Positions 1-62,813 are shown, counted from the first letter of the stretch. The stretch: 64,000 bases of DNA from Phyllosticta citribraziliensis (GCF_038025025.1 NW_027117352.1:248001-312000), one strand, 5' to 3'. The notes: generated from the sequence alone by a model not told the origin. Numbers and translations are program-made.

Positions 1-831
1 ATTTGCATAGCGGCAATGCCCGAGACATACGGCCCTTTGCTGCTGACCTGGAAGGCCGCACACTTACGCCAGATTACTGGAGACGACCGCTTCCGCGCCG
101 AGCATGAGATTGTGGACTCGACGCTCTTCTCCCGCCTCAAAGTCGCCATGACTCGACCCTTCCTCATGTTGACGGAGCCAATTGTCATGTCGATGACTCT
201 CTACCTCACGGTCGTCTACATTGTCCTTTTCACCTTCTTGGACGGCTACACCTACATTTTTCAGGAAACGTACGGCATCTCCCAAGGACTCACGAATGTA
301 ATCTTCGTCGCCATGTTCTTGGGTGTCCTCTCGGTCGGCTTCCTCATTCCGCCCATTTACCGCATGACTGTCAACGAGCTCGAGCGCGCGCGCACAAAGG
401 GAGAGAAGATGTTCAACCCAGAAGTTCGCCTCTGGTTCTGCATGCTTGGAGCCGCTCCCGCCATTCCGATTTCTCTGTTCTGGATGGGCTGGACCGCATA
501 CCCGAACATCTCCATCTGGTCTCCCATCATCGCCTCCTTTGTCTTTGGCTTCGGCATCACAGGAATCTTCATCACAGCGTACATGTACATCATCGACTCG
601 TACGAAGTGTACAGTGCCTCGGCGCTGACATTTGTGTCGCTGGTGAGATATGTCGTAGCGGGTGGAATGACGGTCGTCGGCATTCCCTTCTACGAGAACT
701 TGGGCACGCATTACACATGCACAATTCTTGCTTGCATCTCCACTCTGCTGGTCCCGATCCCGTACATCTTTTACAAGTATGGATACATAATCCGGCGCAA
801 CAGCAAGTACGCTGTCTCGAGAGAGGTGTGA
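1..831 (+). CDS. MFS transporter, DHA1 (drug:H+ antiporter) family, C-terminal half; 5' end lies upstream of the window
   Basis: The frame is open from base 1. It contains PETY, RPFLMLTEPIV, Y(I)IDSY and SALTFVSLVRY motifs and several hydrophobic helices typical of fungal DHA1 proteins. Confidence 0.9.
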   Translation: MCIAAMPETYGPLLLTWKAAHLRQITGDDRFRAEHEIVDSTLFSRLKVAMTRPFLMLTEPIVMSMTLYLTVVYIVLFTFLDGYTYIFQETYGISQGLTNVIFVAMFLGVLSVGFLIPPIYRMTVNELERARTKGEKMFNPEVRLWFCMLGAAPAIPISLFWMGWTAYPNISIWSPIIASFVFGFGITGIFITAYMYIIDSYEVYSASALTFVSLVRYVVAGGMTVVGIPFYENLGTHYTCTILACISTLLVPIPYIFYKYGYIIRRNSKYAVSREV

Positions 832-6818: not shown

Positions 6819-9178
6819 CTAAGAGCTCATAAAACATTCAACATCTGGCGATAGACCAAACGCCTGCACCTGGTCAGTTCTTGTTCAATTCGCGCCTCTT
6901 TAAGGCAGCTTACAGAGAAATCTAGATCAAGCCAGTCACTCGCTTGCCACTGACCAATAGGGTTCGATGCCGAGGCATACGCATCCGTTGGTCCATCAAA
7001 CATGGCGTGAAAGCCGCCGTTCAATTGCTCAGTCATTTCGCGTCCATTCGATTCGTGGTTCATTTCTTCACTCTCCGTCGCATCAGCACGCAGGGAGTCC
7101 TGCCCACCATTACTGACTGCCTCCAAACGCAGCTCTTCGATAATGATTGCGTATCTCCGACTCGGCGACTCGGACGGCAGGGTTCGAGTGAGATGAGACT
7201 GACATTTCTCAGCGAGGGAGAAGAGTGTCGAGTCTTTCTGGCTTCCGGTCGCGAATGATTTCTGCTGAATCTCCAGTACGTACACCACCGCCAGGGCGCA
7301 GAAGGTGACGTATGGCGTCCACCACAATGCGCCGTACGGCACTTTCATGTTGATGAACATGCGATTGATGGTCTCGAGAGCAACTCTTGCAGCACCAACA
7401 CACTCGGATACGCATTCTTGCAATGCGTCAGAGTCGCAATTGCTTGGTTGGTCGAGCAGAAATGGTCTATTGGCATGCATGATGGCGTGGCAATAGGCCA
7501 GCTTCAACGCCGTCGCTTGACGGCTGAACGACGCATTCAAACTCGATGGTCTGACTGCTCCGAGATGAGGTGGCAATTCTTTGCGCCACTCCTGCAGTTG
7601 ATGGTTGAACCCCTGGACAGCTTCCAGTCTCTCAAGGTTGCTCAGGGGCTTCGCAGAGTAGATCTCCCGGGAGATGTTGTCAATGATCTTGGCGACTCTG
7701 TTCAAGGTCAGTGAAGCGCATTTTGTTTATTGGAACCCTTACTTGGCATGGAATATCAGTGAATCAACGTGGTAGTCCATCGTGGGTTCAGCATCGGACG
7801 GCCCGTCTGGAGTCATATCTTCATCGTTGACTCGATCTGGAAAATCCTGATCAACGTCGTCATTGTGATAGAAACGCGGTCTACCAAAAACAATGGCGAG
7901 ATACTTGTCGATGGTATACACCACCCAAAACGTCCTCTTGCGGAATTCGGTCGTGATGTAGTCCGCGTTGGGAGTCCGCGTGCCCCCCGGTCGGCTGCGA
8001 ATCGACTTGCGATGCAGACTGATGGCCAAGACAATAGGGACGGTGCAACCGAAAACGTGCCAGGCTTGATTCATGCGAGAAGTCTGGAGGAGGTAGAGGA
8101 CTTGCAAAATGCGGGCTTGCGCAGATTCGAGACGGGGCAGGCCAGTCTCTATTGATGTGAGTTGAAGAGAAGCATTGAAGAAATCTTCGCTCTGCTGCAG
8201 GATGAAGGAGTCATTTCTGGTGGTCTCGGAGGAAACGACAGAGGCTTTGTGCTTTCTCAAACTAGCAATGGCCAGGATGTTGACCACAATGGCCGCCTTC
8301 GCATGATCAATGTTGCTAAAGAGTGGCAAACTGTTACGGCAGTTGTGTATGACAGTTTGGAGCCAAGTGGAACAGAATGACTGGTTCAGAAAGCGATAGG
8401 TGATGACGCAGTTCTCGAAGTAGAAGTTGAACAGATCAGTAAAAGATTGCGGATCAAGAAAAAGGGAGCCGTAGCTGTTTCCCGAAAGGAAGGGCTTGTC
8501 ACCTGCGGACATGAGTGGTTGAAAGTGTTCCGTGCCTGTCAAGACATTTGGCACAGCGTGTTGCTTTTGCAACGCCAACCGTCTCCAGGCTCGGTGGATG
8601 AAGCTCAAGTTTGATGTGGGATCAACAATCTGTCCTTCAATCTCAGCAGCACCTAGAGCTGGTGATGACCGTGAGGTTGCTGCCCCTGACTGCCGTACGG
8701 GACTGTTTTCGGTCATCAATAGTACAGTCGGTGTCTTCTGTTTCCGATTTTCGCCGCTTGAAGCGTCAGAGTTTGATTGATGATGATTTGGAACAACTGA
8801 CTTTTCCAGCCGATGAGTGGATGGTACAGGAGGGTCGTGGATGCCGTCATTGCTTCCTCTGCTACCACAGAGAGCAGCAGGCGGCGTGGGTGGCCGACCG
8901 CGTCTGTATTGCGCATCGTACAGACAGTCCAAACTCTTCCTCGTGCAGATGTTGCACGGAATCGTCCCAGAACATTTGAGCTTTTTGGTCTTGCAATGGT
9001 CGCAAGCGCGACTAACCTTGGGCGCCTTTTGTCGGTTCTCCGGATTTTTGGCTCGGGAATCCGAGCGGCGCTTCCGGTTGGTTGGGGCCCTATGACTTTG
9101 ACTGGCCGACAGCAACATCCTCGAAGCTGGGGTCGCTGGCTCGACAGCAATCTGATCTCGGGCGTCTTGGTCCGTCAT
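6819..9178 (-). CDS. Zn(II)2Cys6 transcription factor with fungal-specific middle domain
   Basis: RACDHCKTKKLKCSGTIPCNICTRKSLDCLY zinc cluster and EFRKRTFWVVYTIDKYLAIVFGRP motif. Introns at 7698-7742 and 6864-6913; last exon AFGLSPDVECFMSS*. Confidence 0.92.
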
Positions 9179-9230
9179 TTGGGGGCCGTGGACGATGCTG
9201 GAGAGCTAGCGAGGGGAAAAGACTCCCAGG

Positions 9231-30800: not shown

Positions 30801-32237
30801 CTATTCTCTCCCAGCCTCCTCTTTCTTCACTCGGCGTAATCGTTTGTTTCCGCCATAATCACGTTTTACTCACCTTTCCAACCCCGCTCCCTTCTGCAGC
30901 GCTGCACCAGACGTCTCCATGTCCTCTCCTCTCCTCTCCCCTCCCCTCCCGCTGACTCTCCACGACATCACCAGCCAAGCCAGCGTACGCTCACCTTACT
31001 ACCTTCACTCAGCCCATCCACCTCTCAGTCCCCCATCTTCCGCGTGAAAGACTCTCGGTACATACCGAACCGCGTTTCCATGCCAACTCATCGTCCGATC
31101 CGGCGTCGCCTTGGCCAAGACGCATCGGCAGCAGCCGGGCAGCTCGCCGGCGGCCGTGGGCGCCGCCTCGGCAACGCTCATGACGGGAGGAGAGGCCTGA
31201 GGTTCAAGTGCGTGGGTGAGTTGGTGAGGGTGTAGTGGTCCTGCTTCGTCTCCGCTTCTCGGCGCCAGGCCACTGCGATACGGGGTGGCGCTGATCTCGA
31301 TGGAGGGCGCCAAGAGGGTCTGAGAAGGGACATGTCGCATCGCTGGTCCGCGTTGAGCGTTGAGAGGGACTCGGTAGGTAGACATCAGGCAGAGCCGAGG
31401 GCGTTTGAGTGTGGAGGTTGGCGCCTTTCTCGCGGCACCCCGAACTGCTGGGTCAGGCGGATTGAGTTGTATACCTGGTGGTAGACTTGGTTGCAGTTTT
31501 CAGTCACAGTAAAGTCAAACGGCTGTTTGCGCTTTTCGTCCTGCTGAGACAGACGACCTCGAATCTTCACAGCAAACATGATCGCTCCGCCATCCAGCGC
31601 CAACGCGCTCAATACTTTTCTCTCCCAAACACTTCGTTCCAGGCTCAAGCCCAAAGGCATCTCTCTCTGTCTCTGCAGTAAACACTGCACCTCAGCACCA
31701 ATCCAACTCATTATAGGGGCCATCATCGTTTTGCATCAAAGCCAATCGACGCAGCCGAGTCTCGCAGCTGCATGTGCAACCAGCGCGAGTGTTTGGCACG
31801 TAGTAGAGTCGTGAGTTGTCCGTGTAGCGGGGAGAGTGCTCCGGTCCGGCAACGTTGGCAGCAGCAGGGATGTGCGCGGGCAGGGATCGGTTGTATTGAG
31901 GCTGGGTGGGCGGGAAGCGCCGTCTAGCTGAACGGGGTGATGGGGGTGGGGTAAGGGGGTGTCGAGGGGGGTGCTGCGAGGGGTCGATTGCCAAGTTGGC
32001 CAGGAGACTTCGAGATGAAGGAGTAGAAGGATGAATCGACGCCGCTTGTGGAAGCGCGTCGAAAACAGCCAGCAATTGCGCGCGAGGTCATCCGGGCGAG
32101 CACGCCGAAAATTTTTGAAGTCCTGGCCGACCCTTCACACGCATCTGCTCTTCACAGCGGCCACATCCTCTGCATCCCCCATGTCGCTCTCAACATCAAG
32201 TACCATTAACCCCATTATCCCTGTCATACTTTTCGCT

Positions 32238-32407
32238 GGTCGATTGGTCTAGTTGGTCATGACGTGGGTATGTTTCTCTGCGCCAAACGAAAATTTCTCC
32301 AAGAGCCCGTCTCTAACGAATTCCCTATAGGTCTCATAGATTGTGCTATGATCACCTCGCTGAGGTGAGCGATCCCAAGGTCACCAGTTCGATCCTGGTA
32401 TCGACCA
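32238..32407 (+). tRNA. tRNA-Met(CAT), elongator type, with two introns: a spliceosomal-type intron (32268-32330) and a canonical tRNA intron (32339-32371)
   Basis: The spliced sequence GGTCGAT TG GTCTAGTTGGTCATGAC G TGGGT CTCATAA TCCCA AGGTC ACCAG TTCGATC CTGGT ATCGACC A folds as a 74-nt cloverleaf. It has perfect acceptor and T stems, the T31.T39 pair typical of elongator Met, intact A/B boxes and a downstream TTTT. Confidence 0.85.
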
Positions 32408-33098
32408 TGGTCTTTTGCTGTTTTGCTGCTCTGCTGTTGGGAATGGGGACGGGAATAAGGTGGTGGTTGTCGGGCCGTTTTGGTGCGGTGGGATGAGGGT
32501 TATGTTCTACTCCGTACTTCGTCTCTTCCTTTTTGGTTCTTGAACACGTCTTGAAACTCGTTTGCTTCAATCTTTCTTTCGACAGGTCCTCGGATCCTGG
32601 GATCGGTATGCTCGGCGGGAGCTTGACAGGTTGAGAACGACATTCGGGCCGCGAGCCTGTCCCAACCAACAGAACAGCTGGACGACATCCAAAGCCAACA
32701 AGAACGGAGACCCTCACTGCAAAAGACATTAGCAAATCGGACTCTCCACCTGGAGAATGGACCGCGGCGAAGTTCTGCCAAAGTGACGTTGAGGAGAAAA
32801 CACTGCGCCACTCAAACACCACACATCCACCAACAAAGCCACAACGCAGCGCAGCTCAGAAAGCCACCAAAACTGCTCTCAAGACCAAAAGGACGCAACG
32901 CAAGCATCCCAAACGCCTTCCTCCCACCCAAAACAGCAACGCACCCCTTACAAGCTAACCAGACACGGCAACCAAAAGATTCTGGCATCTACCGGTCCGT
33001 GCGCGCCCCATCATAAAAAGCTGCGAAAAATTTGTCCCCTGGCCGACGTACACGGGTGGACGATGCGTGGGCGGGTGGAGAATCAGGGGGCAAAAGGA

Positions 33099-33207
33099 TA
33101 CGGGATGCGAGACTTGAACTCGCGACCTTCAGTGCTCTTCAGACGCTCCTGATCGCTCAGAACCGCTACTGTTAGACTGACGTGATTACCAACTACACCA
33201 ACCCCGC
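33099..33207 (-). tRNA. tRNA-Val(AAC) with canonical 35-nt intron (33135-33169)
   Basis: Minus strand reads GCGGGGT TGGTGTAGTTGGTAATCACG TCAGT CTAACA [intron] C ACTGA AGGTC GCGAG TTCAAGT CTCGC ATCCCGT A, followed by a TTTT terminator. Confidence 0.93.
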
Positions 33208-33678: not shown

Positions 33679-36203
33679 ACCCAAAAAGATTTCTAACAGA
33701 AGGAAATGGACGTTTGATGTGTTCGCGAGACAAGGAGGCTGCAGGTGTTCACCTGCCAGCCGGTGAGTGTGGCGCTGATGCACAACGGACACCACTCTCA
33801 AAGGAAAGAAACAAACTGGAAGAAGCAGAAAGAAGCAGAGCAGGGAAAAAGAGAGCGCAATCAAACCCACCGGCGCAATTTGTCTAGTCCGCCCGCCTTC
33901 GAGCCTTCTGCGACATACACTTCGCACCTCGCAACCGCATCTCCAACCCTCACACTCACACTTACCTTGATGTCCTAAAGCCGCAAATTTAGCCGCCACA
34001 ATAGATGTGCCGTCCGTGTTCAGGCACCCGGCGCGCGGACGCCGACCCAAAACGGTAACCCGACCTGCGGTGCATCCGTCCGCAGAGAATACGGCGACAA
34101 TACGAGAGCCAAGAGGCGTCTCGAAGCGCAAAGCGAGCGTCTGGTGGGGTAAATACCTGAGTACGCATTACATGTGTTAATGTCGTACAGTGGATGATGC
34201 ACTGCTGGAGCATCCTGTGTGGATAGCTGAGTTTGGATTTGACGGGAAGAAAAAGGGCAGTCACGCTTCTTTAAACGTACTGCCATCTTGCGGCTCTGTA
34301 TGACCTCACTGAAAGCCAGCTCGCCACTTTCAGCCGCTATGATTGCGATCATCGTCAGCAGCGTCAGTCGGTGCCGTGTCGGCTTGGCCTGCAGCGAGCT
34401 GGACTGGGCGCAGCTTGGCCGACTCGAGCGAGCGTTGTTCGTCCGTCGTCGGCTTTCAACGACGCGGAGAAGAGGCTGCAAAAGCCGGAAAAGATGGGGT
34501 TGGTGGTAGTGATGAAGAAAATGATGCAAAGGTGCAGAAGTGCAACGTGTGGGAATGTGGACGGGCAATGTGGGGTCTTGCCTGCGTGCAAGACAACAAT
34601 GACCCGAGCTGCTTCGGTAGTAAAAACACAGCGACGGCGATGAGGAGCATTCTGGGGTGACAGGAGGCGAGAGATGGGAGTATGTGGGTTGCCCGTGGCG
34701 TGACGGGTGCTTGGCAAGGGGCCAGGATGGATGAGGTGCGGTGAGGCTGAAGTTACGCGGTGATGGATGTGAGGAAGACCATTTCAAAACGACAAAGAGA
34801 CCGAGAGGGCGTCTTCTTGAATTATATAGAGACCTGGCAAGGCTGGACATAGCCGGTGCGAGTCAATCAGACGGAATGGTGTTGATCAAACTGGGTTGAA
34901 GGATAAGGGTTTTGAGAGATATGGTCGTGTCTCGGTCGTCACGCAGACGGAACTTGCAAGGGACCTGGAATCATTCCAGGCTTGCCTGGTAAAGCCCCGA
35001 GAGCCGACACAGGGACCTGGGGTGGGGAGGTACTTCGGCCAGCACGAGTCGTGGAAGATACCATATCTCCGTCAGCCTTGTCCGCAGCATTTCGACGCCT
35101 GCAGTCCACAGCTATCACAGATACATCGATAACAAAAGATACAACCTCACCATGATCCAGTCTGACGTCTCCTGCTCCTTTGCCTCTGGCAGGAGACCAC
35201 TTGCACGTCATGCTCGGGGACCGGAGCAAAGAAGACGGCATGCTCCGCGCGAAAAGGCAACAATGGCCGAGGCGCACGGCCGCGCGTGGGTATTTTCCTG
35301 ACCGCAGGACCTTACCCCACGGGGCGAAAGTGCCAGCACGGCGGTTAGAGTGTGTAGAAAGTACCGAGATCCTGTGCAAAAATGGGGCCTTATCAGCCGG
35401 GGCGGCGCACCAGGCGACAACGAGAAAGTGGAGGCATTTCGCCCTGGAGCCGGGAATTAGGCCGCGCAAGGAGACAAGCCATGCAGTGTGAGCAAAGAGG
35501 AAAGTGGGAGACGTGCGTGGTGGAGAAGTGGTGATGTCGCTGATGAAAAGTGCCGGTCGGCAATTGAGAGCGCCCCCGGGGTCAGGGACCTGTGCCGGCT
35601 ATTATCATCCAGCAGCAGCAACAGCAGGAAGAAAAGAGGTTGAAGAGAGCGACGTGCCGTTTGGATAGGCACATAATTGCGGGGAAGACCGGGCCTCGCT
35701 TGGTGCAGTCCGGGGTGCATGCGTCGAGCCCATGCGTTGACGCAGCGCTGCAGAATCGCGCCCAAACAACGACACCTCCCATCATTGACGCTGCTTGACT
35801 CGCCGACCGCTGACGCACCCACTCGCCGAGCACCGCATTCTGCCTGGCTAAGCATCCCCCTTTCGAGTCCCTGGCCCGCGCCCACCGCCGCCAAGCTGCT
35901 GTCCACCTGACAGGGCGACTTGGCCCGACGGCTCTCTGGCTGAAGACATCCGGGGCGCCATTGACCCATTTGCCCTGCCTTCCCGCGCTGGGTCGCGCGC
36001 TCTCACGCGTCATGGAGAAGCGGCAGGAAGAGGAGAAAGCTGACGGCCACGGCCAGGCGTATAAAAGCAGGCTGGGCGCAATCGACGCCAAAACAGCAGC
36101 ATCCAGAGGATTCTGGCAAAACGGCGCGCCGCAGCAGCAGCCAGGGACCAATCGCAGCAGACAGCTGTTGCTCGCAGTCGTCTTCTTCCTCCTCGTCATT
36201 ACC

Positions 36204-38115
36204 ATGTGGTCCAAGTACGGTGCGCTTGCGCTCGCGGTCCAGCAAGCTTTTGCTGTGCCGACGCGCAGAGCCGATGCGCCCACTGCCGCGACTAAGAACG
36301 GCACATACGTGGGCGTCCACTCGGCGCAGTACAACCAGGACTTCTTCCTGGGCCTGCCGTATGCGCAGCCGCCTGTGGGAGACTTGCGCTTCCGCGTGCC
36401 CAAGTCACTGAACAGCTCGTGGAGCGAGCCGCGGACGGCCACCGAGTACTCGAACGAGTGCGTCGGATACGGGGTACGTTGAACCAAGATTCGATTAAGC
36501 TTGTGAGCTTATATCAGAGCCGCGGTGCTGGGCGCTGGGCGTCCAGGAACCAACCACTTTGATTGGGGAGAAGGAAAGCTAATTCGTCATTTGCCAACCG
36601 CAGTCCGACCAGTTCCCCTACACCGTCAGCGAAGACTGCCTGTACCTCAACGTGGTGCGGCCGTCGGGCTACGAGAACGCGTCGCTGCCCGTCGCCTTTT
36701 GGATCCACGGCGGCGGCTTCAGTCAGGGCGGCGGCGTCGACCAGCGCTACAACCTGTCGTTCATCGTGCAGCACGCGGCCGACATTGGCAAGCCCTTCAT
36801 CGGCGTCTCGACCAACTACCGCCTGTCGGCCTGGGGCTTCCTGAGCGGCGAGGAGGTTCAGGAGTCGGGCCAGACCAACATTGGTCTGCGTGACCAGCGC
36901 CTCGCCCTGCATTGGGTCCAGGAGAACATTGCTGGCTTTGGAGGTATGTCATCTTCTGACCCCCTGACGACCCCCTGATATCAAGACACTGGCTCACCAC
37001 GCATCCCCCTTGCAGGCGACGCCAGCAAAGTCACCATCTTCGGCGAGTCGGCGGGTGGCGCCAGCGTCGGCGCGCACCTCGTCGCCTACAATGGCCGCGA
37101 CGACTCGCTCTTCCGCGGCGCAATTGCACAGTCCGGCGGGCCCATCTACTACGGCCCGCTCAACACGTCGTCGGACAACAACGCCAAGTACCAGTCGTTC
37201 GTCAGCAGCACGCCGTGCAGCAACGCAACGGCGCCGCTGACGTGCCTGCGCACGCTCGACTACGCGACGCTCAACGCGGCCGTCAACAGCACGGGCTTCA
37301 CGTCGTGGGGGCTGGCCATCGACGGCGACATCATCGCGGGCAAGACGTCGCAGCAGGTGGCGCGCGGCGACTACGTCCACGTGCCGCTCGTCATCGGCGC
37401 CAACAGCGACGAGGGCACCGCGTTCGGCGCGCAGGGCATCAACACCACGGCCGACTTCGAGCGCGTGCTGCTCGCCTCGCGCGTCGCCACCAACCAGACC
37501 GCCGCGCTGCTCGAATACTACCCCGACGACCCGGCCGTCGGCATCCCGGGCTCGCCCCCTCTCGGCCCCCTCCCCGCCGACTTCCGCCCCCCCGCCCCCT
37601 ACGGGGCCCAGTACCGCCGCAGCGCCGCGTACACCGGCGACCAGTACTTCATCGCGCCGCGGCGCGCCGTGGCCGAGGCGTGGGCCGCGGCCGGCCTGCC
37701 CACCTGGAGCTACCGCTTCAACGCCATCCCCAACGGCATCAGCCAGATCACGGCCGCGACGCACTTCCAAGAGGTGGCCTTCGTCTTCTACAACCTGCTG
37801 GGCGTGGGGTACTACGGAGCGGCGGCCAGCCCGCCGCCCTTCGACGGCAAGCCGCAGGGCTACGCCGACCTGGCCGCCACCATGAGCGAGGCCTGGATCC
37901 GCTTCTTCGTCGACGGCAACCCGAACGGCGCCGCCGGCGACGAGGGCCTGGCCCAGGGCGGCGTCGCGACTGGCGCGTGGGAGGCGTATAGCGTCGATGC
38001 GCCGACGAACTTTGTCTTTGATGCGAATGTTACGAGCCATGTCGAGCCTGACACGTGGAGGAAGGAGGGCATTGCGTGGATTAATGCCCACGCTCTGGAC
38101 GTCTACTCCAGGTAG
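36204..38115 (+). CDS. Secreted type-B carboxylesterase/lipase
   Basis: Signal peptide, FLGLPYAQPPVGDLRF, SEDCLYLNV, WIHGGG oxyanion motif, GESAG nucleophile, NSDEG and ATHFQE catalytic residues. Introns at 36474-36603 and 36944-37015. TATAAAA lies at about 36060. Confidence 0.95.
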
Positions 38116-47661: not shown

Positions 47662-50289
47662 GATGGTGGCGGATTGTGCGAGGAGTGTTGATAAGGTTGA
47701 GTGTTGAGAAGGTTGAAAGGAAGTCGATTGGCAGGGAATGGTAAATTGGAAAAGTGGTGGCAAGGACGGACAGATCAGTCTACTTATACCCCGCACGCAA
47801 CAGGGCCGACAGGGAAGGCAGGATTTGGTCAAAGGAGCTGCCCGGCTGAGAGCTAGCTACCTGGTAGGAGTATGGTACCGCAAGGTTGCTGACTGGGTCC
47901 CTGCCCGTCGCCGTGATACTGTAGGTACGTACCTACGTACCGGTAGCGTGCCCATTTCATCACTGGTGACGGCAAACTTGGCATGGATAGGGCAAAGGCC
48001 GGGCGGCCACTATTCAACCGGCCAGCTTGCCTGGGACTCTCCCTCCCTCTACTGCTGTCCTCAGCGCTGCAGGGTACAGCAGCTCCTGCAACCTTGATTC
48101 CACGACCGCCATCCCGGACGGTGAGCAGATGCGCCCACGTCGTTGGTCGGCCAGCTGGTTGCGGAGCGAGGTAGGCCTGACTACTCGATGCCTGGGTGCC
48201 CGCCATCGCACGGCGGCCGATTTGGTGGGCGCCGGGATCCTGCCCTGCTCCCGCCGTGTCTGGCGTTATCTATAGGACGCGGCGATGTGCTCCCAGGAAC
48301 GCAGAAACACGCGCAGAGTTCTGGCGTCGTTCTGGTGCCGTCGTGGTGCTCACCTCATCCAAGTGCTCGCGCGGCGGCGGGGGCGGGTCAGGCTGGGTAG
48401 GTGACCATGGCCCTGACGTCATGCCGTTCCATGGATCCTGCGCAGACCCTGCGTCGAAACCAATGTAGGTAACTCTGCCAAAAGCACCAATCGAATGACG
48501 TGGGAGCCATCCGCTTCGAGAGCAGCCACTCGGACGTACCGCTCTCTATCTCACCACCTTCACCTGCCGCAGATTGCGCTGCATTCCAAGGTTTGAGCGT
48601 GCCCTCGACCAAAGGCCTGGCCCGCGTCTACTGGTCGACGAGAGCGTGCCGTCAGACGCCATTGGCCATGTTGGAATCGGAGGTTGAGCTTAGCCTTTTG
48701 CGACTTGTACCCGCCATTTGGCGAGCGAGGATGCGCCGGGCCACTCGTGGACAGCTGGATCCTTCCACGATAGCTTCTTCCTCTTGCCCGCTTGTCGCAA
48801 CCTGTTCCCATCGACAGCTTAATCACCAAAGTCGCGTCATCGGGTAAAAGAAGCTCGACAAAGTTCGCTTCCTCAATTTAGCCCGCTCGATCGGCGCCGG
48901 CGCCAGCTGAAACATTTTCGAGTCCAATCATCTGTTGAGCGGAATCCGTGGATCGACGGGAATCGCCCGTTCCCGTTGTCAGGGCACAACACGCTCGCAC
49001 AACGTGGCAGAGGATCTGGTTGAAAGTGTTTCAGGTTCTTCATCTGGCCACTGTTGGTTCGTCGTTTGCCAAGTTGGCCTCTCAACTGCAACTCTTCTGT
49101 CCTCTTCGCGCCGTCCGTTCTTTTCCTTTTTGGGAGAGCTAGATGCTGTGATACATGTATATAGTTGCGCTTGTCAAGTTGAGTTCCATCTGCTGTAGAA
49201 ATGAATAAAATGCTCCAGAACATGAAGCAGGACTTGCCCGTCTTGAGGCTTTGGGGGCGCAGGTGTGGGGAAGAGTTGGCCATGGCTTCAACTGCTCTCC
49301 AAGGCTTGAGGAGGCCTCAAAGAAGAGACGAGGTGGGTTTTTAGTACAAGCCAACTTTATCATCCCTGATTGAGACTGGAATTTCAAAGTCAAGGCCGGC
49401 GTGGTGATTGAGTCGAAAGTGCAGACAGGCTATATGAAATTGTACCTGGCCTAGCTGTTGCAGACCATTCGACCAAGGTGTTCGTTGTGGAGTTCTTGGT
49501 GATGGAGTGCCTCCGCTGGAGCAGACGGGAGTCTCGCGCAGCTAGTCCGTATTTGGTTAGTCCAGGCTCATGCGCGTAGTCACCACTCCCACCGCGACGA
49601 CTTCATCGCCGTCGTCGCCCCCGACCTCTCCTCTCAATCAATCAGATTTCACTCCTTTGGCCGTGCCTGGTTTTTCCGATCAGGCGTTGCGCACCAGGTT
49701 GGACTTCAATCGGCCATTGTCCTCAGCACCTTACAGAGCCCGAGCTCTTCCTTATTTACGCTCCTTGGATGGTCGTTTGTCAACAGTATCGCTTGCAATT
49801 GACCCACGCCTTTGCCGCCAGCCCCACCCCAACGCCGCCCGCGACGCAAGCCTTCCGGTTTCATTGGCGCGTTCGAAGCGCTCATACACGCATCTTACGC
49901 TGATAGCCACTGTGCCTCAACGCCACCCTCCTCCGAGCTTTGAATGACTGCTCATCCGAGGCGCCACCCAAATTCTAGCAAAGGCCAATGTCTGTTCGCA
50001 ACGAGCCGCTCTGCAAAGGACGATCCTGAGCAGGCCATGTTTGTCGGGCTATTCTAAACAGACTCCCTTGTCTTCACTCTTGCCAGGCCCGCTCATTGAG
50101 CCTCCAAGGTAAGCCCCTATTCAGCACAGCCGGCTCTGTTGCACCTATGATATCCGAGGGTACAGGAAGGTTGCGCTACTTAAAGTTGATCGTCGTGAGT
50201 CTTTGATCCCTAGCATCAGCCAAATTTCTTCTTTCGCCTTTCTTGTTGTGGCACAGAATTCAACCACACAAGTCCTCGATCAACCGGCG

Positions 50290-52557
50290 ATGGGCCGTAT
50301 GCGTCGTCGATACGGCAATGGCGTATGTCGTACCTGTTGGAATCTCAAATGCGAAGAGTTTGAGTGGGCCTTCATGGCCCACGGCGGCTTCGAGTTCGCC
50401 ACTCGACAAGACTGGAAAAGTCATCTCCTCTACACCACCTTCAATAAAATTGAACAATCTTCAGCTAGCGGCTGTGTATTCTGTTCAATCCTTCAGGATG
50501 GTATCAACAAGTTTTGGCCTCTTGAGATAGACCGGAATTTTGACTTCACAAAGAATGTGCTCGCCCGGTACGAAAACGGCCTTGGATGGAATCTGAATCC
50601 GAGCACCAACGACCTGCCAAAGAAGCAGACATGGAGACTCTGTATTGAGATACGACCAGGACGCAGCCTGCTCTTGTCCAGGATCGACCAACAGTGCTCC
50701 GCAGCGATGGCGGATAGGCGCAATTGCAACAGTGATTTTTGTGTTTTTGGCTCTTGGAGAGCTCCGATCGAGTTCTTCACTCCAAATGGTGCGTTAAGAT
50801 ACAGACGATCACACTGTTCTCATTTTACTAACAGTAATGCAGGAAAGACCCCTTTCCATGAAACTTTCGGGTCGTCTGTAGATGTACCCGCAACACTGAA
50901 GCTTGACTACATCAACCAAAAATTGACAAGATGGCTTTCAGAATGCAGTTCGAAGCACAGCTACTGCAGTAGCAGCAATTTTATTTCGGATTCGGTCTGT
51001 CCAAAACGGCTCATCCAAACGACATACGGCAAAGTACGGCTTGTCGAGCTGCCGCCAGATTCTCAAGTCTCTTACACAACGCTCAGCCACTGCTGGGGAT
51101 CTAACTCGACAAACATCCTCCGAACCCTGACTACCAACATTGCGTCCATGCGCGAGTCCATCGATTGGAATAGCATTCCACCCACTTTTCAGGATGCCAT
51201 CAGGATTACGCGATTGTTGTCGTGCGGATACATCTGGATTGATTCGCTGTGTATCATCCAGGACGACAAGAACGACTGGCAGGAGCAATCGGCGCAAATG
51301 GCCATGGTATACAGCAACTCGTTTCTCAACATTGCCGCTACTGCGTCCAAAGATAGCCATGGAGGATTGTTTGCATCTCGAGTGCTTGCCGTTAATCCGC
51401 CTCCCCAAGACGACACGAGACCTTTGGAGTCACATGCACTTCGCGATAACATGGTTGCTCGTATACACTTTCACCAAGCCCACGAGCCTTTTTTTGGGAC
51501 GAGTCTGTCCGATTCCGCGGTGAGCGTTCCTGATTTTACAAGAACACATGGAAAACCTTTTCCTTTGCTTCAGCGAGCGTGGGTCTTCCAAGAACGGATG
51601 CTCTCGCGTCGGACGGTCCACTTCACACCGTCTGAAATGGTCTGGGAATGCAGAGAGCACACAAGATGCGAGTGCGGAGGTTACGACGACACCGACAAAG
51701 ATATTGAGTATCCGAGGACTAACACCAAGACGATATTTAGCAGAGTAATCTGTGGAAAAGGAACGGAACTTCGTTCCTTGAACAGCGCTTGGCGGAACTG
51801 CGTTGCAAAATACTCCCAGTTGAACATCTCGATGAGCACGGATTGGCCTCATGCGATGGCTGGGCTTGCTATTCGACTCGTGCCACTCTTCAAGAGCAAC
51901 TACATTGCAGGAATGTGGGAAGGACATTTCCCCTACTGCCTGCTGTGGAAACCAGCCGTGGGCACCGTCAAAGGTTACAACACATCAACTCGCGAATGGC
52001 CGTTCCATACGTACTCCTTTCCAAGCGGACCACCAACTTGGTCTTGGTTCAACTGCAGAGCGGCAATCGAATCCGGGGTTGGCGAAATGAAATACCGTTT
52101 CGCAGGTCTTAAATCACAAGACGAGTGTGCAGACCTCGTCAAATTCGAGTTTGGCGATGCTATCGCCGAGGCTGACGATCAGCAATCAGCGGGCTTTCAA
52201 GTCGACCATCATGGCAGACCGTTGTACTTGACCGGACCTTTACAGGAATGCCGCATTTGGCTACCCTTGTCACCCGAGCATCCCGAAGTCAAAGTCAAAC
52301 TCCACGGCCGGGAAGACTGCGAAGACCATGGAGTATTCAAGATTTCGCTGGATTTCCAAGCTCCGGAATCTTTGGCCGGTAGTTGGTACCCTATTTATTG
52401 CCTCAGAATCTATGAGGGAAAGTCGGGCGGTCAAGAAAGCCTCGTTCTTGCCGCGTTCCCGGGCGAGAGTTTCTACGTGCGGGTTGGCACTGGCTTGTCG
52501 TATCAGAAGCAAAACCCGTTCAAGGATGCAAAGGTCTGCCGAGTCGAGGTGCGTTGA
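50290..52557 (+). CDS. HET (heterokaryon incompatibility) domain protein
   Basis: PKRLI, YTTLSHCWG, PPTFQDAI, YIWIDSLCIIQDD, MAMVYSNSFLNIAA, LLQRAWVFQERMLSRR and PTWSW motifs. A probable in-frame 54-nt intron lies at about 50789-50842. Confidence 0.93.
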   Translation: MGRMRRRYGNGVCRTCWNLKCEEFEWAFMAHGGFEFATRQDWKSHLLYTTFNKIEQSSASGCVFCSILQDGINKFWPLEIDRNFDFTKNVLARYENGLGWNLNPSTNDLPKKQTWRLCIEIRPGRSLLLSRIDQQCSAAMADRRNCNSDFCVFGSWRAPIEFFTPNGALRYRRSHCSHFTNSNAGKTPFHETFGSSVDVPATLKLDYINQKLTRWLSECSSKHSYCSSSNFISDSVCPKRLIQTTYGKVRLVELPPDSQVSYTTLSHCWGSNSTNILRTLTTNIASMRESIDWNSIPPTFQDAIRITRLLSCGYIWIDSLCIIQDDKNDWQEQSAQMAMVYSNSFLNIAATASKDSHGGLFASRVLAVNPPPQDDTRPLESHALRDNMVARIHFHQAHEPFFGTSLSDSAVSVPDFTRTHGKPFPLLQRAWVFQERMLSRRTVHFTPSEMVWECREHTRCECGGYDDTDKDIEYPRTNTKTIFSRVICGKGTELRSLNSAWRNCVAKYSQLNISMSTDWPHAMAGLAIRLVPLFKSNYIAGMWEGHFPYCLLWKPAVGTVKGYNTSTREWPFHTYSFPSGPPTWSWFNCRAAIESGVGEMKYRFAGLKSQDECADLVKFEFGDAIAEADDQQSAGFQVDHHGRPLYLTGPLQECRIWLPLSPEHPEVKVKLHGREDCEDHGVFKISLDFQAPESLAGSWYPIYCLRIYEGKSGGQESLVLAAFPGESFYVRVGTGLSYQKQNPFKDAKVCRVEVR

Positions 52558-55332: not shown

Positions 55333-58300
55333 TTAGGCCACCGATTCTCCTCCGTCTCTTCCCATGGCTTCGAGGAACTCGCGAGCCTCGTCGGGAATCG
55401 CCTGCCGCGCTTCAGGGGCAGAGGTGAAGGAGTCGGCGGCTGACATGGTGTCTCTGCCCTCTTCGGCCGGGCCCTCGGCAGCGGCAGCCTTTGCCTTTTC
55501 GTTCGCCAACACGGCCTTCTCCTGCTCCCTCTCCTCGCGCTCCTTGTATATCTTGGTCTTGGTGTCATGCGCAAAGTGGAGCGCTTCAATGTACGTCTTG
55601 AACTTGATGAGTTCCTTGAGGAGGTATTCGGACTTTTTCTGAAAGTTTGTCATGGCCCTGCCGGCGTTCGGGTGGCGCGGGGAGAACTGTGACGGGGAGA
55701 GGGTAGAGTTAGCGGATTGCGCGTGGGCAGTGCTTGGACGACGCGCGGCTTGCAAGGACGACGAAGCAGACAAATCAAAGGTGCGAGGATCGAGCGCAAA
55801 CAACGTTTGGAAATCAAAATCAGACGAGGGCTGGGTTGTTTGATCCAAGGAATGGACGTGCAACTGCAGTCCATACGACACGCACAGGCCGACGTCCTGG
55901 TGGACATCTCCGCGCGAGTCGGACGGCAGCGGCAGTCCGAGTGGAAAACGATCATGGGAATCGCACGGAATACCTACCGCGATGAGCATCGGTGCCCTCA
56001 GCTCCTGATGCTTCGACAGCTCCTCTTCGACGCTCTTGACGTAGGCGGCGAGAGCCTTGAGCTGATCCACTTCCATCAAGTTGCTAGCCATCATGCTTGG
56101 CGTCGGTGGCTTCCAGTCGGAAATTGGCACTTTGTCTCCGGGCAACCTGGGCTTGATGGTGGCAGAGCCGTGGTCAATCGAACTCCGGATGGAGCTTTGA
56201 AGGCTTGGTCTTGGCATTCCGACATTGTTCGACATGGGCGACGTGTCTGGGCGGTTGATTCCAATGAGCGCGGGGTTGATGACACCCTCGCCCCATCCGT
56301 ACTCCAAGTTGCTGACTCCGCCAACGAGCGGCTCCTTTGAGAGGCGCGCAGCCCAGTAATTGGCCGTGTTGACAAACTCCTTGACAATGTCGGTCGTGTT
56401 TGCCTGGAACAAGTGGACAGCACCAGTAGGGAGAGAAAGAGCCCACACGTGCGGCCTTTGCTTGGAGTAGCCGGGAGGCGGCAAGATGGTGGCCAAAGTC
56501 TGGCGCAAGAGGAACGACTGGAGCTCCTCGGCATTGTCAAGCCAATTGCCACCTCCGACAACATCGCCCGCCGACGGCCTGCGCTTTCCTTTGTTGCGGG
56601 TCGACTTTCCGTGCGAGGGGAAGGTGAAGAGCTTCATGTAGCCCTTTTCAATGACGGCAAACACTTCGTTCCAATTGCGGTCCTTGAAGCGCTTCTGCAT
56701 CGACTCCAAATGGAACTTGTGCTTCAACATGCCCTCCTTGGCCCACGGTGGACCATGGAGCTCCAGTGTTTCGTCCTCCAACAGCGGCGCGGTGCGGCCA
56801 AAGTCCTCGCTGCTCGTGGGAACGTGGTTTTCCTCGCGGATCATGGCTTGGTTCAAGAGGTTCGCAAAACCAATCGAAGGGTTGTGGTCCACGGGCGAGA
56901 AATGAGAGCCTAGGGATTCAACTGACATGGATGTACCAGTCTTTCCAATAGAATAGCTGCTCCACTTACTCGAAGGTGCTGGGCTCCACACTGAAGGTTC
57001 TTCGAGGCTAGTCCGGCTCGAGCCCAGCGTTGAGTTGGGGTAGATCCTGGGGCGCGAACGTGCCTTTGGATTCCAGCGCGAAGTGGAGCGAAAGTCTGGG
57101 GTCCGGCCACGGTAGCTCGTCGTGTCGGAGGGAGCCTTGCTGAGAACCGAGGGTGTGCGACGCAACACTCCGCTGACAGACAGGCTGTTAGACGAGGTAG
57201 TCGGGTTACTGGAGTCGCCGTGCAGCGGCAAGCGTTGAGTCTTGATGGAGTTGTAAAACTCTTTGAGCACCACCTCGACCTGGGACTCCCACGCCTTCAT
57301 GGGTCCATCGAACGGTGCCTTGACCAACGCGGTGCATCGGTCACCAGAGCCAGAGTCGTAGGCGTACCCATCCGATTCTGGTCGATGAGAAATGGCTGGT
57401 TTGATGGAAAGGCGGTTCTTCGACCGCTTGGTGCCAAGTTCAGTAGAACCCCGGTCGCCATGATACTCGCCCGTCGGCGATGAGGGAAAGTCGTCCAGCG
57501 GCGTGTTACTCCGAGAATAGTCGTCGTGGTTACCATTGCTTTCTGAAAGCTCGGCCTCGACAACGCTGGTGATAGTCGGCAGGGTATTCTTGACAAACTG
57601 ACTACGGGTCATCTTGGACTCAATGTCGGCCATGTGGAGATCGGTGTTGAGGAGCAGCAACGAGTAGCAAATGGTATGCACGGCACCTGTGATTTTGTCA
57701 GCGTTTACACCTACCAAAAGATATATGGCAATTACCTGGCGACTTGAACCCGTGATTCGGGTTGCATTCGCACCACCTCAGCGCAAACGCATCGAGAACA
57801 CGGTCGACTTCTTGCGTCTCACCCTTCAACACCAGGCGGCTGCAAAGATCTCGCATCGCAAGCAAAATGTTAAAGCCCGACCACTCGTACAGTTCCATGT
57901 AGGCCTTGCGGCACCGCGCGCTGACCGCAGTCTTTTCGCCAAGCCATGCCGCAGCCCTGGATTTGGAGACAAAAGTCTCAATGCCCTCAAACACCTGCCT
58001 CGCCTTTTCGCGGTCGTCATCCGTCGGCTCTTCATCGATAGCAGTCAACGGGCGGCGCGCCTCGATCGATGGTCGGGTTTCGTGACCGTCAATTTGCAAC
58101 ACGGGCAGGTTCGAGGCGGGATGGTACGTGTCGCTCAAAGTGTCAGGGTCCGGCTGCTTTCGCGTTCCCTCAAGCGGCAAGGCGAGATCCGACACGTCCT
58201 CGCCGTACCCCTCGTCAGACGAATCTGGATGCAACCAGACCCGGGGTTTGCCATCGCTGACGTCACTTCCGCTTGCGTCCTGCCGCGCAGGATTCATAAT

Positions 58301-60454
58301 GACCCAGCTGTCCTCGTCCTCCATCTCCCTTTGCAGCGTCCGGTGTGGCGTGATGTTGATAGAGGGCTGGAGGTCGGAGCGTCGTTCGCCGTTCGCCTTG
58401 GGTCGAGCATTCTCCTGGCCGGGAAGCGGTGCGAGCTGAGGCGGGACGGGGCTGGTGGCAGGTCTCCTGGACTGCTGCTCGGGGACGGCCATGGAGGGAC
58501 CCTTTTCGGCGGGGGAAGGGCTCGAGGCTTTATCCTCCGCGCCGCTGCTGTCGGCCAGGAAGGACGAGTCGTCGTTCGCCCTGCTGCCCTTGCTGCGTTT
58601 CACCGTCAGTTTGTACTTAGGGCTTTGCTGCACATCGTCGGAAGCAGGTGGCACGCTGTCGTCCGTTCCACGGGAGCCCGGTTTGACGGGGCGGATTGTA
58701 GCATCCTTGTGGGGCTTGTACTCTGGGGAGAAACCAGGCACTTTATCTACTCCATCGTGGGGAGGGCGCTGATGTTCTCGGCTGTCATAGTGCGACGCCG
58801 CGGGCGAGTCGCTCCTCGGGTCGTTAAGATAGGGGGTCATTATCTGACGCAGGCTCGTCACCGAGGCACTAGGTACCACGGATTCTGGGAGCTCCGTGCG
58901 AGCTTGGCCCGGGGGAGGCATAGGCGGGGCAGCCGTTTGTTCGGTTACGGATCTCTTGCGACGTCGAAAAAACGACGAATTCTTTTTGTTCAGCACAGGG
59001 GGCGGGCGCTGGTCGTCTTTGGCGTGCGTGTTGCTGCTGTGCGGGTGCTGGGATGCTGCATAACGTCAGTACTTGGAAGCGTATGATTCGCTGCATTTGG
59101 ACGCACCATGCAACGAGTTTGCAGGCGTCGTCGAAGGACGCCTGTTGTTGGGTTCAGGAGACCGTTGCCGTTGCTGATCTGGAGGCGGTAGGCCCGCCGT
59201 CTTCGGCGATTCTTGTACCTGTTGGTTGTTTTTCCTGGCGCCAAAAACTCGGCTGAAGAAGCCACGCTGCTGCTCCTTGGGCTGAGCTGGCGTCTGGGTC
59301 GCGGGCGAGCCGACTCTGCTGTTGGACGCCGAATCTGCAAAGGCCGAGAGAGATGGGAGCCTTGGGAGTTCGTGGTTGCTCGACGAGTTGACAGCGTTGA
59401 CAAACTCTTTGGCCTGACTTCGGATGTTCTCGTCGGGGCCTGCACCTCCTCCTCCTCCTCCGCCGCCTCGAGGCTTCCCATTCCACTGCCCCTTGCTAGA
59501 TGACGATCGGAGGCTATTTTTACGCGGTATGGGGCCCGGCGTTGCAGACGTATGCGCTGGCGGCGGCGAAAAGGCCTCTCCCTGGGAAAAGTCGTAGCTG
59601 GAGCTCGATGTCGGGGCACCCTGGTGCCGCCGAGACCCTGTCGGAATGGTTGGAGTGGGCGCCGCATCGTAACCGCTAAACGACATGACATCCGGCCGGC
59701 CTCTCTCCATGATGGACTCGTGTTGTTGCTGGAAGCCGGATCGGTCTCCAAATTTTTGGTCAAAGGCGGGCGACAGGTTCAGTCGGTGGTCTGCCGGACG
59801 CCCAGTCGGAGTGCTGTAGCCAAGGTCGAGGCTGGATGCTGAACTACCCTTGCTGCCCTTTCTCCCAGCGCCTCTGACATGGTGTGAGTATCCGTCGTCG
59901 CCAAAGGGCCTGGAGCGGTGGGCGTCGGTGCTTGGTGCGCGCGAGCCGGCGCTGTCTATGCGGTCCAAGGCGGAGCGGAAGTTTTGGGGGGCGTTTCCGC
60001 GGGGGTCTCGGCGGGAGAAGCGGGACAGGTAGTCTTCGGGGGCGTCGTAGTTGACGGAGAAGGAGTTTTCGCTGCCGTGGGTGCGGAGGATGCGCGGAGG
60101 GGAGAAGCGGGCGAGGGTGGAGCGGTAGAAGTCTTGGTCGTCGTCGTAGCGCAGAGACGAGGACGAGGGGAAGGTGTCACTGCCGGAGGGCAAGTTCTCC
60201 AATGAGAAGAGCATGTTTTCGACGACCGAGGAGCGTGTGACATCCCTGAACTTGAGGTCGTGCGAATCGCGCGACAGACGCGACAGGTCGGTTGCTGTGC
60301 TACGTCTCTTGTCGGTGGGCGTCTCGTCGGCGAAGAAGGTTCCCGAGGGGGAGGAGCCGGAAGCAGCAGCAGGAGCTCGTTGCGCATGCATGGGCGGAGT
60401 CCGGGGAGGAGAGGACCTGGCCGAGCGGTCGTTTGAGGAAGTAGTGCCCGTCAT
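55333..60454 (-). CDS. Sec7-domain Arf guanine-nucleotide exchange factor with PH domain (Syt1/Yel1-like)
   Basis: LVLKGETQEVDRVLDAF and HTICYSLLLLNTDLH are Sec7 motifs. The PH region includes PWAKEGMLKHK, LPPPGYSKQRPHVWALSLP and ANYWAARLSKEPL. Introns at about 59056-59106, about 57688-57735 and 55687-55977. Confidence 0.92.
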
Positions 60455-62813
60455 GAGAGCGGCGGCAAGGGAATGCGAATGCGCGTTGGCTTGGTGGCGG
60501 GCGGCGATGCGAAGGCGCGAGGCTCATGGGCGCAGCGTCGAGGTGTCACGGCGCCAATGGCTGGAGGAGACGCGAATTGGGAGATTAGATATGGCGTCAG
60601 TGGAGGGCGGTGTACATGTGCACTTGATGTAGGAGCAGAGCACAGTGCAATGGTGGTGAGTACTGTAGATGCCGGGAGCCGTCGAGTGCAGCCCCTGGAC
60701 CCGGACCCGGACCCGGACCTGGACCTGGACCTGGAGGAGCTGGGGGACCAACGGCGGCGGCGGAGAAAATGGACGGTCGTCTACAAGACAGGGCAAGGCA
60801 AGACAAGACAGACAAGACAATGGACGGTGGTTGTGCGACGGCGACGACGAGGTTAAAATCAATCTGCGGGGCACTGATGGTTTCAGTCGCGAGACAGGGA
60901 AGCCGAGCAAGAGCATACATTAGCATCCAACGAAGCTTTTCTGCAAGGGCCGCAGCTGATGCATCTGCGCTGCGCTGCTGCTCTCCGCTCCACGTTTAGT
61001 TCGCTTTGTTGCGCGCGCGCGGATCGGAGAGCGGTTTGGCGGCCGCGCTACCTTATGCCAGTGGAGGCCTTTCCTTTGCACCGAGAGAGCCTCACCCTCT
61101 TTGTCCGTGTGCTCTTTGTTGTCTCATTTCCCGTCGACTTCTCGTCTTGCTCGCACGCGATAAGCTGAGTGAGCTGAGCCCTTTGTTTCAAACGCTGCCA
61201 ACGCATCCTTGTCCCCCTCATCCTGTTCCTCTCGCCTCCCCAGACGCCCATCCCCGTCGCAGTCGCAGTCGCAGCACCTGTCCCTGTCCCTGTCGACCAC
61301 ACAGGCACAAAACGAACCACTCCCAGCCGAGCCATGGATGCGCGCTTCCTAAACGAGCACCTCGTCATCTCCAGTCTCGTCTCGTCTCGTCTCCAATATT
61401 CTCGACACAGACCTCTTTGCCCATCTTTCGCTCCAACCGGCCAAGAGGGAATTGCGACGCGCCGCTCCAACCGTTCCTTCACTCACCTGACGATTTGCCT
61501 GATTTTTTGACGGGCAACTGACAGCTACACAACCAACACTATACCTATGTATGTACACGGGCGGCATTCTGCCAAAAGTTGCTTCCGTTCTGTCATGGTG
61601 GCCGATATTATCATTATTATTATTATCAATCACATCTAATGTATTTTCCCGTCCCTCCGTCCGTCTTTTCCCCGTCCGCACCACCACCACCACCACCACC
61701 ACCACATCCACAAACTCTAACCATCAATCATCGTCGTCCATCGTCGTGACAGAAACACCCCCTCCACACCTCAGCCTATTCCATCCATCTCCATCTCTAT
61801 CCAACACAACTATGTACCTATACCCTCCCCCGCCTTAACCTCCTCCCATCCATCCATCCCTCCCGCATCCGCTCCTCCGCCCGCCCGCCGCCCGCCGCAA
61901 CACCCAAACGCTCCCGTCTGTCGGGCCCCGTCGACATGCTGTACCTTACCTCACCTCACCTCACTGTATCTAAGACTTTATACTTTCGCCAAAGAAGCTG
62001 CTGCAAACACTGACTGACGTGCATTGTGGCTTGCTTGCATGCCTGCCTGCCTGCTTGCCATCATCCATGACTCGCGTGCTGAGGCCATTTTTTGAGTTTG
62101 GTCGTCACGGTACCTGCCTGCGTATAAGGTGCTTAGTCGGCCAGTTGGAGGTGGGTGGGTGGTTGATCGTGGGCGTCTGACTCTCGTCCTGTTGTTTCTT
62201 TTATGCTTGGTCGATACCTTTTTTTTTTTTTTTTTCTTTTTTTCTTTTTTGCGTGTGTGTGTTTGTACAAGTTGGATGATGTACTGTAGGTGATTTGTAG
62301 AGCCAAGGGGGTTATGTAGGCAGTAGATCCCTGTGTGGCACCTATCCACTCACCTACCTAACTACCACCTAGTTACGCACATGAGTAGATCGATCAGATT
62401 AGCTACTCCTGTTCACGGCTGATGGTCCGGAGATGGGCGACGACGTAGCGAAGTGGTCATGACGATGGCCAACAAAGCAACACACCACGACAGCTAGATG
62501 GGAGAGAGGGACATGGAGCTGGAGAGAGAAACCGAAGCCCATCCATTCATCCATTTCGTCTTTCCTCGACCTGTCTGTCTGTCTGTCTGTCTGTCTTTCT
62601 CGATATGCGTCTCTTTTGTCTCGCGTCTGTTCGTCTGTTTTTCGTCTCTTGCAGGCTATGCTGGCTACATGCACCTATGCAACGCACGCTCCATCCACCA
62701 CTTCCCGGCGGCCCATCGAGTGAGTGGCACGGGGTGTTTTTGTCGTTGTTGTTGAGTGTTTGCTCGCTCGACGCACTCACGCTACCCCCTCTCCCCTCCA
62801 CCACACCCCGCAC

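Follow-up and report, generated by a model that had tools for sequence, protein, structure and literature searches.

Spliceosomal introns are known in the gene of the U6 small nuclear RNA (snRNA), a transcript of RNA polymerase III (Pol III), as well as in the U1, U2 and U5 snRNA genes and in ribosomal RNA (rRNA) genes, and the introns of U6 have been ascribed to reverse splicing near the catalytic centre (PMC5855946). The introns of U6 in fission yeast and other fungi, together with those of U1, U2 and U5, are also counterparts of the element described here, which lies in a 64-kb stretch of Phyllosticta citribraziliensis DNA (NW_027117352.1:248001-312000; hereafter the window, that is, the whole 64,000 nt analysed). 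This element is an elongator-type tRNA-Met(CAT) gene in three exons, at 32238-32407 on the plus strand, which carries a 63-nt insert of spliceosomal type besides its ordinary tRNA intron. What it shares with the snRNA genes (PMC5855946) is a short GT-AG intron with fungal signals in the gene of a structured non-coding RNA. The host here is, however, a tRNA gene that keeps its protein-spliced intron, and two splicing systems would meet on one precursor of 170 nt; unlike the U6 introns, moreover, the insert carries DNA that appears to derive from a tRNA-Met intron. To our knowledge, tRNA is not known to come close to the spliceosome.

Spliceosomal introns have reportedly been described in ascomycete nuclear rRNA genes as well (by Bhattacharya et al. 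in 2000, as cited in PMC5855946), and there the likeness consists in an intron of spliceosomal type, in an ascomycete, within a structural RNA gene that is not read by RNA polymerase II (Pol II); those genes are, however, transcribed by Pol I, encode another RNA and are without a second intron type in the same small RNA. Introns which are not removed by the tRNA endonuclease also occur in tRNA genes of bacteria and organelles, where they belong to groups I and II. These are ribozymes that splice themselves and run to hundreds of bases, group II also forming lariats, whereas the insert considered here would be a 63-nt nuclear intron of U2 type. More than one intron in a tRNA gene, with one located around positions 29/30 of the anticodon stem, is found with the bulge-helix-bulge (BHB) introns of archaea, Cyanidioschyzon merolae and nucleomorphs; according to PMC4090602, the non-canonical or multiple tRNA introns of eukaryotes are those of nucleomorphs and Cyanidioschyzon, either BHB-dependent or very short, and the elongator tRNA-Met of the Guillardia nucleomorph has three introns. 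The endonuclease cuts those introns, which are either short or BHB-shaped, whereas the present insert is without a BHB and has a donor, a branch point and an acceptor. No description of a spliceosomal intron in a nuclear tRNA gene was found in the full-text literature, a body of text with most subscription journals outside it and hence no proof of absence; among the sources without such a description, in the parts available, are PMC12530127, PMC5855946, PMC10275265, PMC4090602, PMC13578239 and PMC3879985. Spliceosomal introns in small structural RNA genes are known, and a tRNA gene as the host, alongside a tRNA-type intron, would be the first case if RNA data confirm it.

The reading that we prefer, and in which our confidence is evenly balanced, is that the locus is a functional and selected tRNA-Met gene with two introns, a U2-type (GT-AG) spliceosomal intron of 63 nt at 29/30 and an ordinary tRNA intron of 33 nt at 37/38. 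The three-exon anatomy had been put forward in an earlier reading of the sequence (the original prediction), and its coordinates and letters were all confirmed. The parts of the gene are as follows:

32230-32233 (+): run of four T (T4) in the leader, at -8 to -5 relative to the gene start
32238-32267 (+): exon 1, 30 nt, tRNA positions 1-29 including 20a, with the 3' end ...GACGTGG
32245-32256 (+): A box, within exon 1
32268-32330 (+): spliceosomal-type insert, 63 nt, between tRNA positions 29 and 30 (5' strand of the anticodon stem)
32268-32273 (+): 5' splice site GTATGT, the first bases of the insert
32313-32317 (+): branch motif CTAAC of the insert, the branch A being 32316
32328-32330 (+): acceptor TAG, the final bases of the insert
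32331-32338 (+): exon 2, GTCTCATA, 8 nt, positions 30-37, with the anticodon CAT at 32335-32337
32339-32371 (+): canonical tRNA intron at site 37/38, 33 nt, with an anticodon-intron helix
32372-32407 (+): exon 3, 36 nt, positions 38-73, with the discriminator A73
about 32386-32396 (+): B box, within exon 3
32413-32416 and 32421-32424 (+): T4 runs 3' of exon 3, candidate Pol III terminators

Exon 1 holds intact acceptor and D arms, with T8, A14, G18 and G19 all present, and once both introns are removed the expected letter stands at all 27 of the 27 conserved tRNA positions checked (a list drawn from general knowledge); the T loop is of the elongator type. Standard pairs make up 19 of the 21 stem pairs, the exceptions being T13-T22 and T31-T39, and the second of these is probably a trait of the family, since uninterrupted tRNA-Met paralogs align with the gene up to ...GGGT and then again from the end of their intron. 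The A box, the B box and a terminator are intact, as had been claimed, and the insert is free of runs of four or more T (its longest run has three, and that of the canonical intron two). At 32203-32220, or -35 to -18 relative to the gene start, stands a tandem 9-nt repeat (CCATTAACC / CCATTATCC) with an A/T-rich core, a possible upstream promoter element.

The splice signals of the insert form a complete set. At the first removed base the sequence GTATGT agrees with GTRNGT, the branch A is separated by 14 nt from the final G of the TAG with no AG in between, and this acceptor is the first YAG past the branch. The trinucleotide GGT is found at both ends of the insert, which gives four equivalent cut registers (32266|32330 to 32269|32333) with an identical product, and only one of the four is GT..AG. 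When these signals were formulated as a strict motif (GTATGT, CTAAC and the first YAG 8-30 nt past the branch A, in a total length of 45-100), a single occurrence was obtained on both strands of the 64-kb window (128 kb), exactly at 32268-32330, and none in each of 30 first-order Markov simulations. A relaxed motif (GTRNGT...CTRAY...YAG) is not discriminating, with 19 segments in the window versus 14 +/- 4.6 simulated. The likely mRNA introns of the window, which are putative and were chosen by the joining of open reading frames (ORFs) together with motifs, some of them in Pfam-supported genes, measure 48-94 nt, begin with GTRNGT and have CTRAC 10-20 nt before YAG; the one at 36944 likewise begins with GTATGT. 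With its 63 nt and the same motifs the insert falls among them, and the claim that it matches the mRNA introns of this genome in size and signals is upheld.

The G+C content of the insert is 44%, against 57% for the window, it is rich in A, T and C, and the region is unstructured, folding worse than 200 of 200 shuffles (z +2.66). Nor does the insert look like an intron that a tRNA endonuclease would recognize. By the generally known rule of two 3-nt bulges and a 4-bp helix, all four registers lack a BHB geometry, since no more than 3 of the 4 central pairs are formed and the outer and inner helices are poor; as controls, the canonical intron of the same gene gave 4 of 4 central pairs and the intron of the neighbouring tRNA-Val gene 2 of 4. 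In minimum-free-energy folds the boundaries of the insert lie outside 3-nt bulges. No second copy of the insert was found within the 64-kb window.

The behaviour of tRNA scanners agrees with this anatomy. Default ARAGORN called zero tRNAs in the 64-kb window, and with introns allowed it read the native locus as tRNA-Ala(agc), the anticodon being split by a 96-nt intron. Deletion of 32268-32330 in silico, a check that the original prediction had proposed for tRNAscan-SE/Infernal, turned this mis-call into a clean tRNA-Met(cat) with a 33-nt intron, and deletion of both introns yielded a full cloverleaf. With the tRNA model of Rfam (RF00005), the native locus had no match at the gathering threshold and none in 32100-32550 at E<=10; the sole tRNA match in the window at the gathering threshold was a tRNA-Val(AAC) gene at 33099-33207 (-). 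It had rightly been expected that standard scanners would miss or mis-call the gene.

Further evidence comes from public sequencing runs, of which 8 are listed and 5 hold part of the stretch. Four of them (X1, X2, X3 and X5) were compared at a likeness of at least 80%, as assembled contigs and with none on record as RNA, X4, X6, X7 and X8 being outside the comparison. X1 is a metagenome which is possibly the source of the window itself and is not counted as independent; it covers 32129-32314 with zero differences. X2 (organism A, the same species) has flanks identical to the window. Contig cover is blank over 32315-32388 in X1 and over 32270-32364 in X2, and these blanks are uninformative either way. 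It is X5 (organism C) that gives a diverged view of the locus, with flanks differing at 31/239 and 53/481 positions (84/720 in total, about 12%). From this run, a 251-nt contig corresponds to 32031-32269 (depth 6.0), a 121-nt contig that includes the insert, at 32240-32359 (depth 8.4), has 15 differences and 1 gap, and a 65-nt contig over 32330-32394 shows 0 differences. Between the last two there is an overlap of exactly 30 nt, equal to k-1 of these assemblies, and we infer that they share one node and one locus; because of this overlap and of the absence of differences in 32330-32394, all 15 differences would lie in 32240-32329.

In organism C, then, 15 differences in 90 positions upstream stand against 0 in 65 at 32330-32394 (Fisher p 2e-4), and the probability of 0 changes in 65 nt at the rate of its flanks is 3e-4. 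Judged from this one relative, exon 2, the canonical intron and part of exon 3 appear to be under constraint, and the interior of the insert appears to change at least as fast as intergenic DNA. Since the differences number 0/65 downstream and 15/90 upstream, the pattern speaks against a freely decaying pseudogene. The expectation that the exons would be kept while the interior of the intron diverged is thereby borne out in one relative, where the 15 differences are known by count and not by position. Searches with patterns of the gene itself gave little: the locus-specific intron pattern and the exon-3 pattern had 0 matches each in metagenome contigs, and a gapped exon-1/exon-2 pattern had 1 match in genome contigs, at 601-676 (-) of a bacterial metagenome-assembled genome (L001), which lies within an apparent coding sequence and was rejected as chance.

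A form of the gene without the 63 nt exists. In X5, one of the four runs, a single contig joins 32266 to 32330 and omits exactly 63 nt, whose ends are GT..AG in the register shifted by one (+1). Three letters at the joint fit both sides; the contig has a depth of 3.3, and its shorter side is 27 letters long. On its right side the contig continues into the locus-specific canonical intron, the insert being out and the tRNA intron in. Such an intermediate, lacking exactly the 63 nt and retaining the tRNA intron, had been predicted, and a form of that description is indeed present in X5, its nature as RNA or DNA being a guess: it is either spliced RNA or an insert-less DNA copy with the same canonical intron. 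Adapter letters fused at fixed places (32648 in X5 and 33301 in X2) and a depth that differs 10- to 60-fold between neighbouring unique contigs are RNA-like signs, and because of them we lean towards X5 and X2 being RNA, in which case the short form could be a product of the spliceosome.

As to its origin, the insert seems to have been built at least partly from tRNA-Met gene DNA, because two blocks in it match the canonical intron of a paralog, the uninterrupted tRNA-Met of X1. The blocks are:

32295-32305 (+): block matching the 3' part of the paralog canonical intron, 10/11 letters, corrected p about 0.007
32309-32328 (+): block like the paralog anticodon loop and intron start, with GTCTC, TAA and then AATTCCCTAT

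Within the second block, AATTCCCTAT (32319-32328) matches the paralog canonical intron at 10/10 letters and occurs once in the window; the match has p 1.6e-4 in shuffled inserts, or 0.004 when corrected for 24 possible 10-mers. In an alignment made by eye, GTCTC and TAA correspond to the end of the anticodon stem and to the loop of the paralog, and the CTAAC branch motif falls where a duplicated anticodon loop would align. The paralog-like blocks stand in permuted order within the insert and are nearer to the paralog intron than the gene's own canonical intron is, all this being a post hoc observation on short blocks. Probably, the insert was born at the GGT microhomology when another tRNA-Met gene served in templated repair, in a duplication or in ectopic recombination. 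Reverse splicing, which the original prediction had proposed as the origin of the intron, finds no support here, as the two paralog-intron blocks point to local repair or duplication instead. The 41 nt downstream in the gene itself were considered as a source, by tandem duplication, and rejected, the local alignment score being reached or exceeded by 1792 of 2000 shuffles, and a repeat search found no internal direct repeat.

Under the reading that we prefer, pieces of paralogous tRNA-Met DNA, from the anticodon loop and the intron, would have been copied in at the GGT microhomology, and point changes would later have supplied the splice signals. The gene would be transcribed into a Pol III (or longer) precursor, from which the spliceosome would remove the 63 nt in the nucleus, with GUAUGU as donor, the A of CUAAC as branch point and, 14 nt downstream of it, the first AG as acceptor. 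The product would be a normal intron-containing pre-tRNA, which the tRNA splicing endonuclease (TSEN) and the ligase would then complete to a tRNA, to be matured and charged. It had been argued that TSEN needs the spliceosome to act beforehand, since the anticodon arm could not otherwise fold. This argument is weakened, as TGGGT at 32265-32269 is contiguous and the stem can form in the unspliced precursor; the order of the two splicing steps would be set by kinetics or by cell compartment. In yeasts, the endonuclease is located elsewhere than the nuclear spliceosome. Perhaps one may go further and suppose that both splicing systems are required in series, that a spliceosomal intron arose de novo from the DNA of a paralog's protein-spliced intron, and that its branch site stems from a duplicated anticodon loop, one intron type having been converted into the other, with a precursor that may even be a long Pol II transcript. 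This extension is a tentative one, which we consider possible and somewhat short of probable.

Several observations weigh against a functional gene with two introns. Uninterrupted tRNA-Met genes are present in 4/4 runs: X1, X2 and X5 have in common a joint from 32269 to 32365, where CTCATA and a different intron of the 34-nt class come directly after ...GGGT (depth 3.8, 63 and 294, respectively), and X3 (organism B) has two further uninterrupted forms. Because such genes exist in all four, the interrupted copy is not needed for the supply of tRNA-Met. Identical uninterrupted copies had been named beforehand as evidence that would tell against the gene, and this came out in part: uninterrupted copies do exist, but those of X1 and X2 differ from the interrupted gene at 2 letters in 32238-32269. 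A joint of X3 from 32269 to 32347 (depth 8.9) represents an insert-less tRNA-Met which shares the 3' part of the locus's canonical intron; the contigs of organism B break within exons, and should this copy be the orthologue, either the gain of the insert postdates the separation from B or B has lost it. Moreover, the paralog-derived blocks show a rearranged gene, and the leader is atypical, with its T4 run and without the A-rich or CAA-type leader that precedes the paralogs and the neighbouring tRNA-Val gene, which is a mild argument for weak or unusual transcription. As X5 has no library type on record, the skipping contig may represent a paralog or an allele in DNA, and joints with a side of fewer than 30 letters or a likeness below 95% often stem from repeats. 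According to PMC4090602, a eukaryotic tRNA gene that bears such an insertion, when it is one of many synonymous copies, is usually regarded as a pseudogene. A rearranged and inactive tRNA-Met copy would account for these points: a repair or duplication accident would have left a pseudogene with paralog-intron blocks, fortuitous signals and an atypical leader, the short form, one contig of depth 3.3, would be DNA, and the uninterrupted paralogs, with their higher depth, would supply tRNA-Met. We regard this as unlikely, although its chance is a real one. A decayed copy would hardly keep every one of the conserved positions checked, nor remain without a difference over 65 nt when the sequence just upstream and the flanks of organism C have diverged, and its strict signal set would have to fall, by accident, exactly at the boundaries that restore the tRNA, a placement never seen in the simulations. 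It would also have to be explained how a species diverged by about 12% comes to have a copy that lacks the insert and yet carries the identical locus-specific intron.

Other points against the preferred reading concern the transcript and its cleavage. Among Pol III transcripts, U6 is the only one for which splicing by the spliceosome is documented (PMC5855946), and in X5 the insert-bearing sequence is continuous with the contig that starts 207 nt upstream (32031); if X5 is RNA, this continuity means that the molecule sampled is a long transcript rather than the primary product of Pol III. Splicing might then be incidental and confined to a long Pol II transcript, read-through or non-coding, with no tRNA produced from this copy; in fact, the contig running from 32031 into exon 1 and the insert-bearing one are of similar depth, and any Pol II transcript with such strong signals would be spliced. 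We give this a small probability, for it leaves unexplained both the persistence of the tRNA invariants and of the A and B boxes, and the lack of any difference in exon 2, canonical intron and exon 3 next to a diverged insert. RNase P and RNase Z can free tRNAs from long transcripts, and a long transcript could still yield a tRNA. Another difficulty lies in TSEN, which cuts guided by a ruler: because TGGGT upstream of the insert still permits the anticodon stem, the unspliced precursor could be mis-cut after 32275, giving a GTT loop and a 96-nt intron. Were TSEN the only enzyme at work, cuts at 32275|32276 (after ATGTTT) and before 32372 would remove a single 96-nt intron with the CAT exon as a part of it, and would leave a loop of ATGTTT plus A with the anticodon GTT. 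The TGGGT/TCCCA stem that can form unspliced, a T at position 33 and the 96-nt single-intron solution that ARAGORN also gives, in another register, all agree with such a cut, yet T at position 37 and A at position 32 are unusual, the body of the tRNA is that of CAT-bearing paralogs, and neither the intact second anticodon loop with its own anticodon-intron helix (4/4 pairs) nor the contig that skips 63 nt is explained; we consider this very improbable. Finally, a non-canonical tRNA intron of BHB type, placed from 29/30 to 31/32 and cut by the endonuclease as in archaea, Cyanidioschyzon merolae and nucleomorphs, could be invoked, as 29/30 and 30/31 are known archaeal intron sites and some eukaryotic endonucleases accept non-canonical BHB introns (PMC4090602); the excision being ambiguous in register, GT..AG ends are not forced. 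With 0/4 registers in BHB geometry, junctions outside the 3-nt bulges and folds inferior to every shuffle, and with a full set of spliceosomal signals left as a coincidence, we attach hardly any credence to it.

The surroundings of the tRNA-Met gene are those of a filamentous ascomycete. The tRNA-Val(AAC) gene on the minus strand, with a 35-nt canonical intron, was found by Rfam (51.1 bits) and ARAGORN; it lies about 700 nt downstream and is convergent with the tRNA-Met gene, and several paralogs of it with other introns are present in the public contigs. The spacer that separates the two tRNA genes (32557-33128) is covered by contigs of both X2 and X5. A high-depth contig (depth 231, 3195 nt) begins at 33301 with fused adapter letters, and with the adapter fusion of X5 at 32648 these fixed ends look like the ends of unannotated transcripts; Pfam gave no match for the long ORFs at 32557-33128 and from 33301 onward. 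Farther away are a carboxylesterase-family gene at 35814-38115 (+), with at least 3 exons, PF00135 on two ORFs and the likely intron at 36944, a HET-domain gene at 50113-52554 (+), a gene for a Zn2Cys6 fungal transcription factor at 7742-9205 (-), and a Sec7/PH-domain gene at 55336-60523 (-) with a likely 51-nt intron at 59056-59106. HET, Zn2Cys6 and fungal transcription factor domains are ordinary gene content of filamentous ascomycetes.

By the textbook division, spliceosomal introns belong to Pol II transcripts (plus U6) and protein-spliced introns to tRNAs. If the tRNA-Met gene of P. citribraziliensis is a functional gene with both, the spliceosome can act on a tRNA precursor, and the gene would be a natural substrate on which the spliceosome, La/RNase P and TSEN compete. 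Genes of this kind are invisible to Rfam/Infernal and mis-called by ARAGORN, so the counts of fungal tRNA genes may be slightly low. The insert would moreover be a dated and traceable birth of an intron from a known source DNA.

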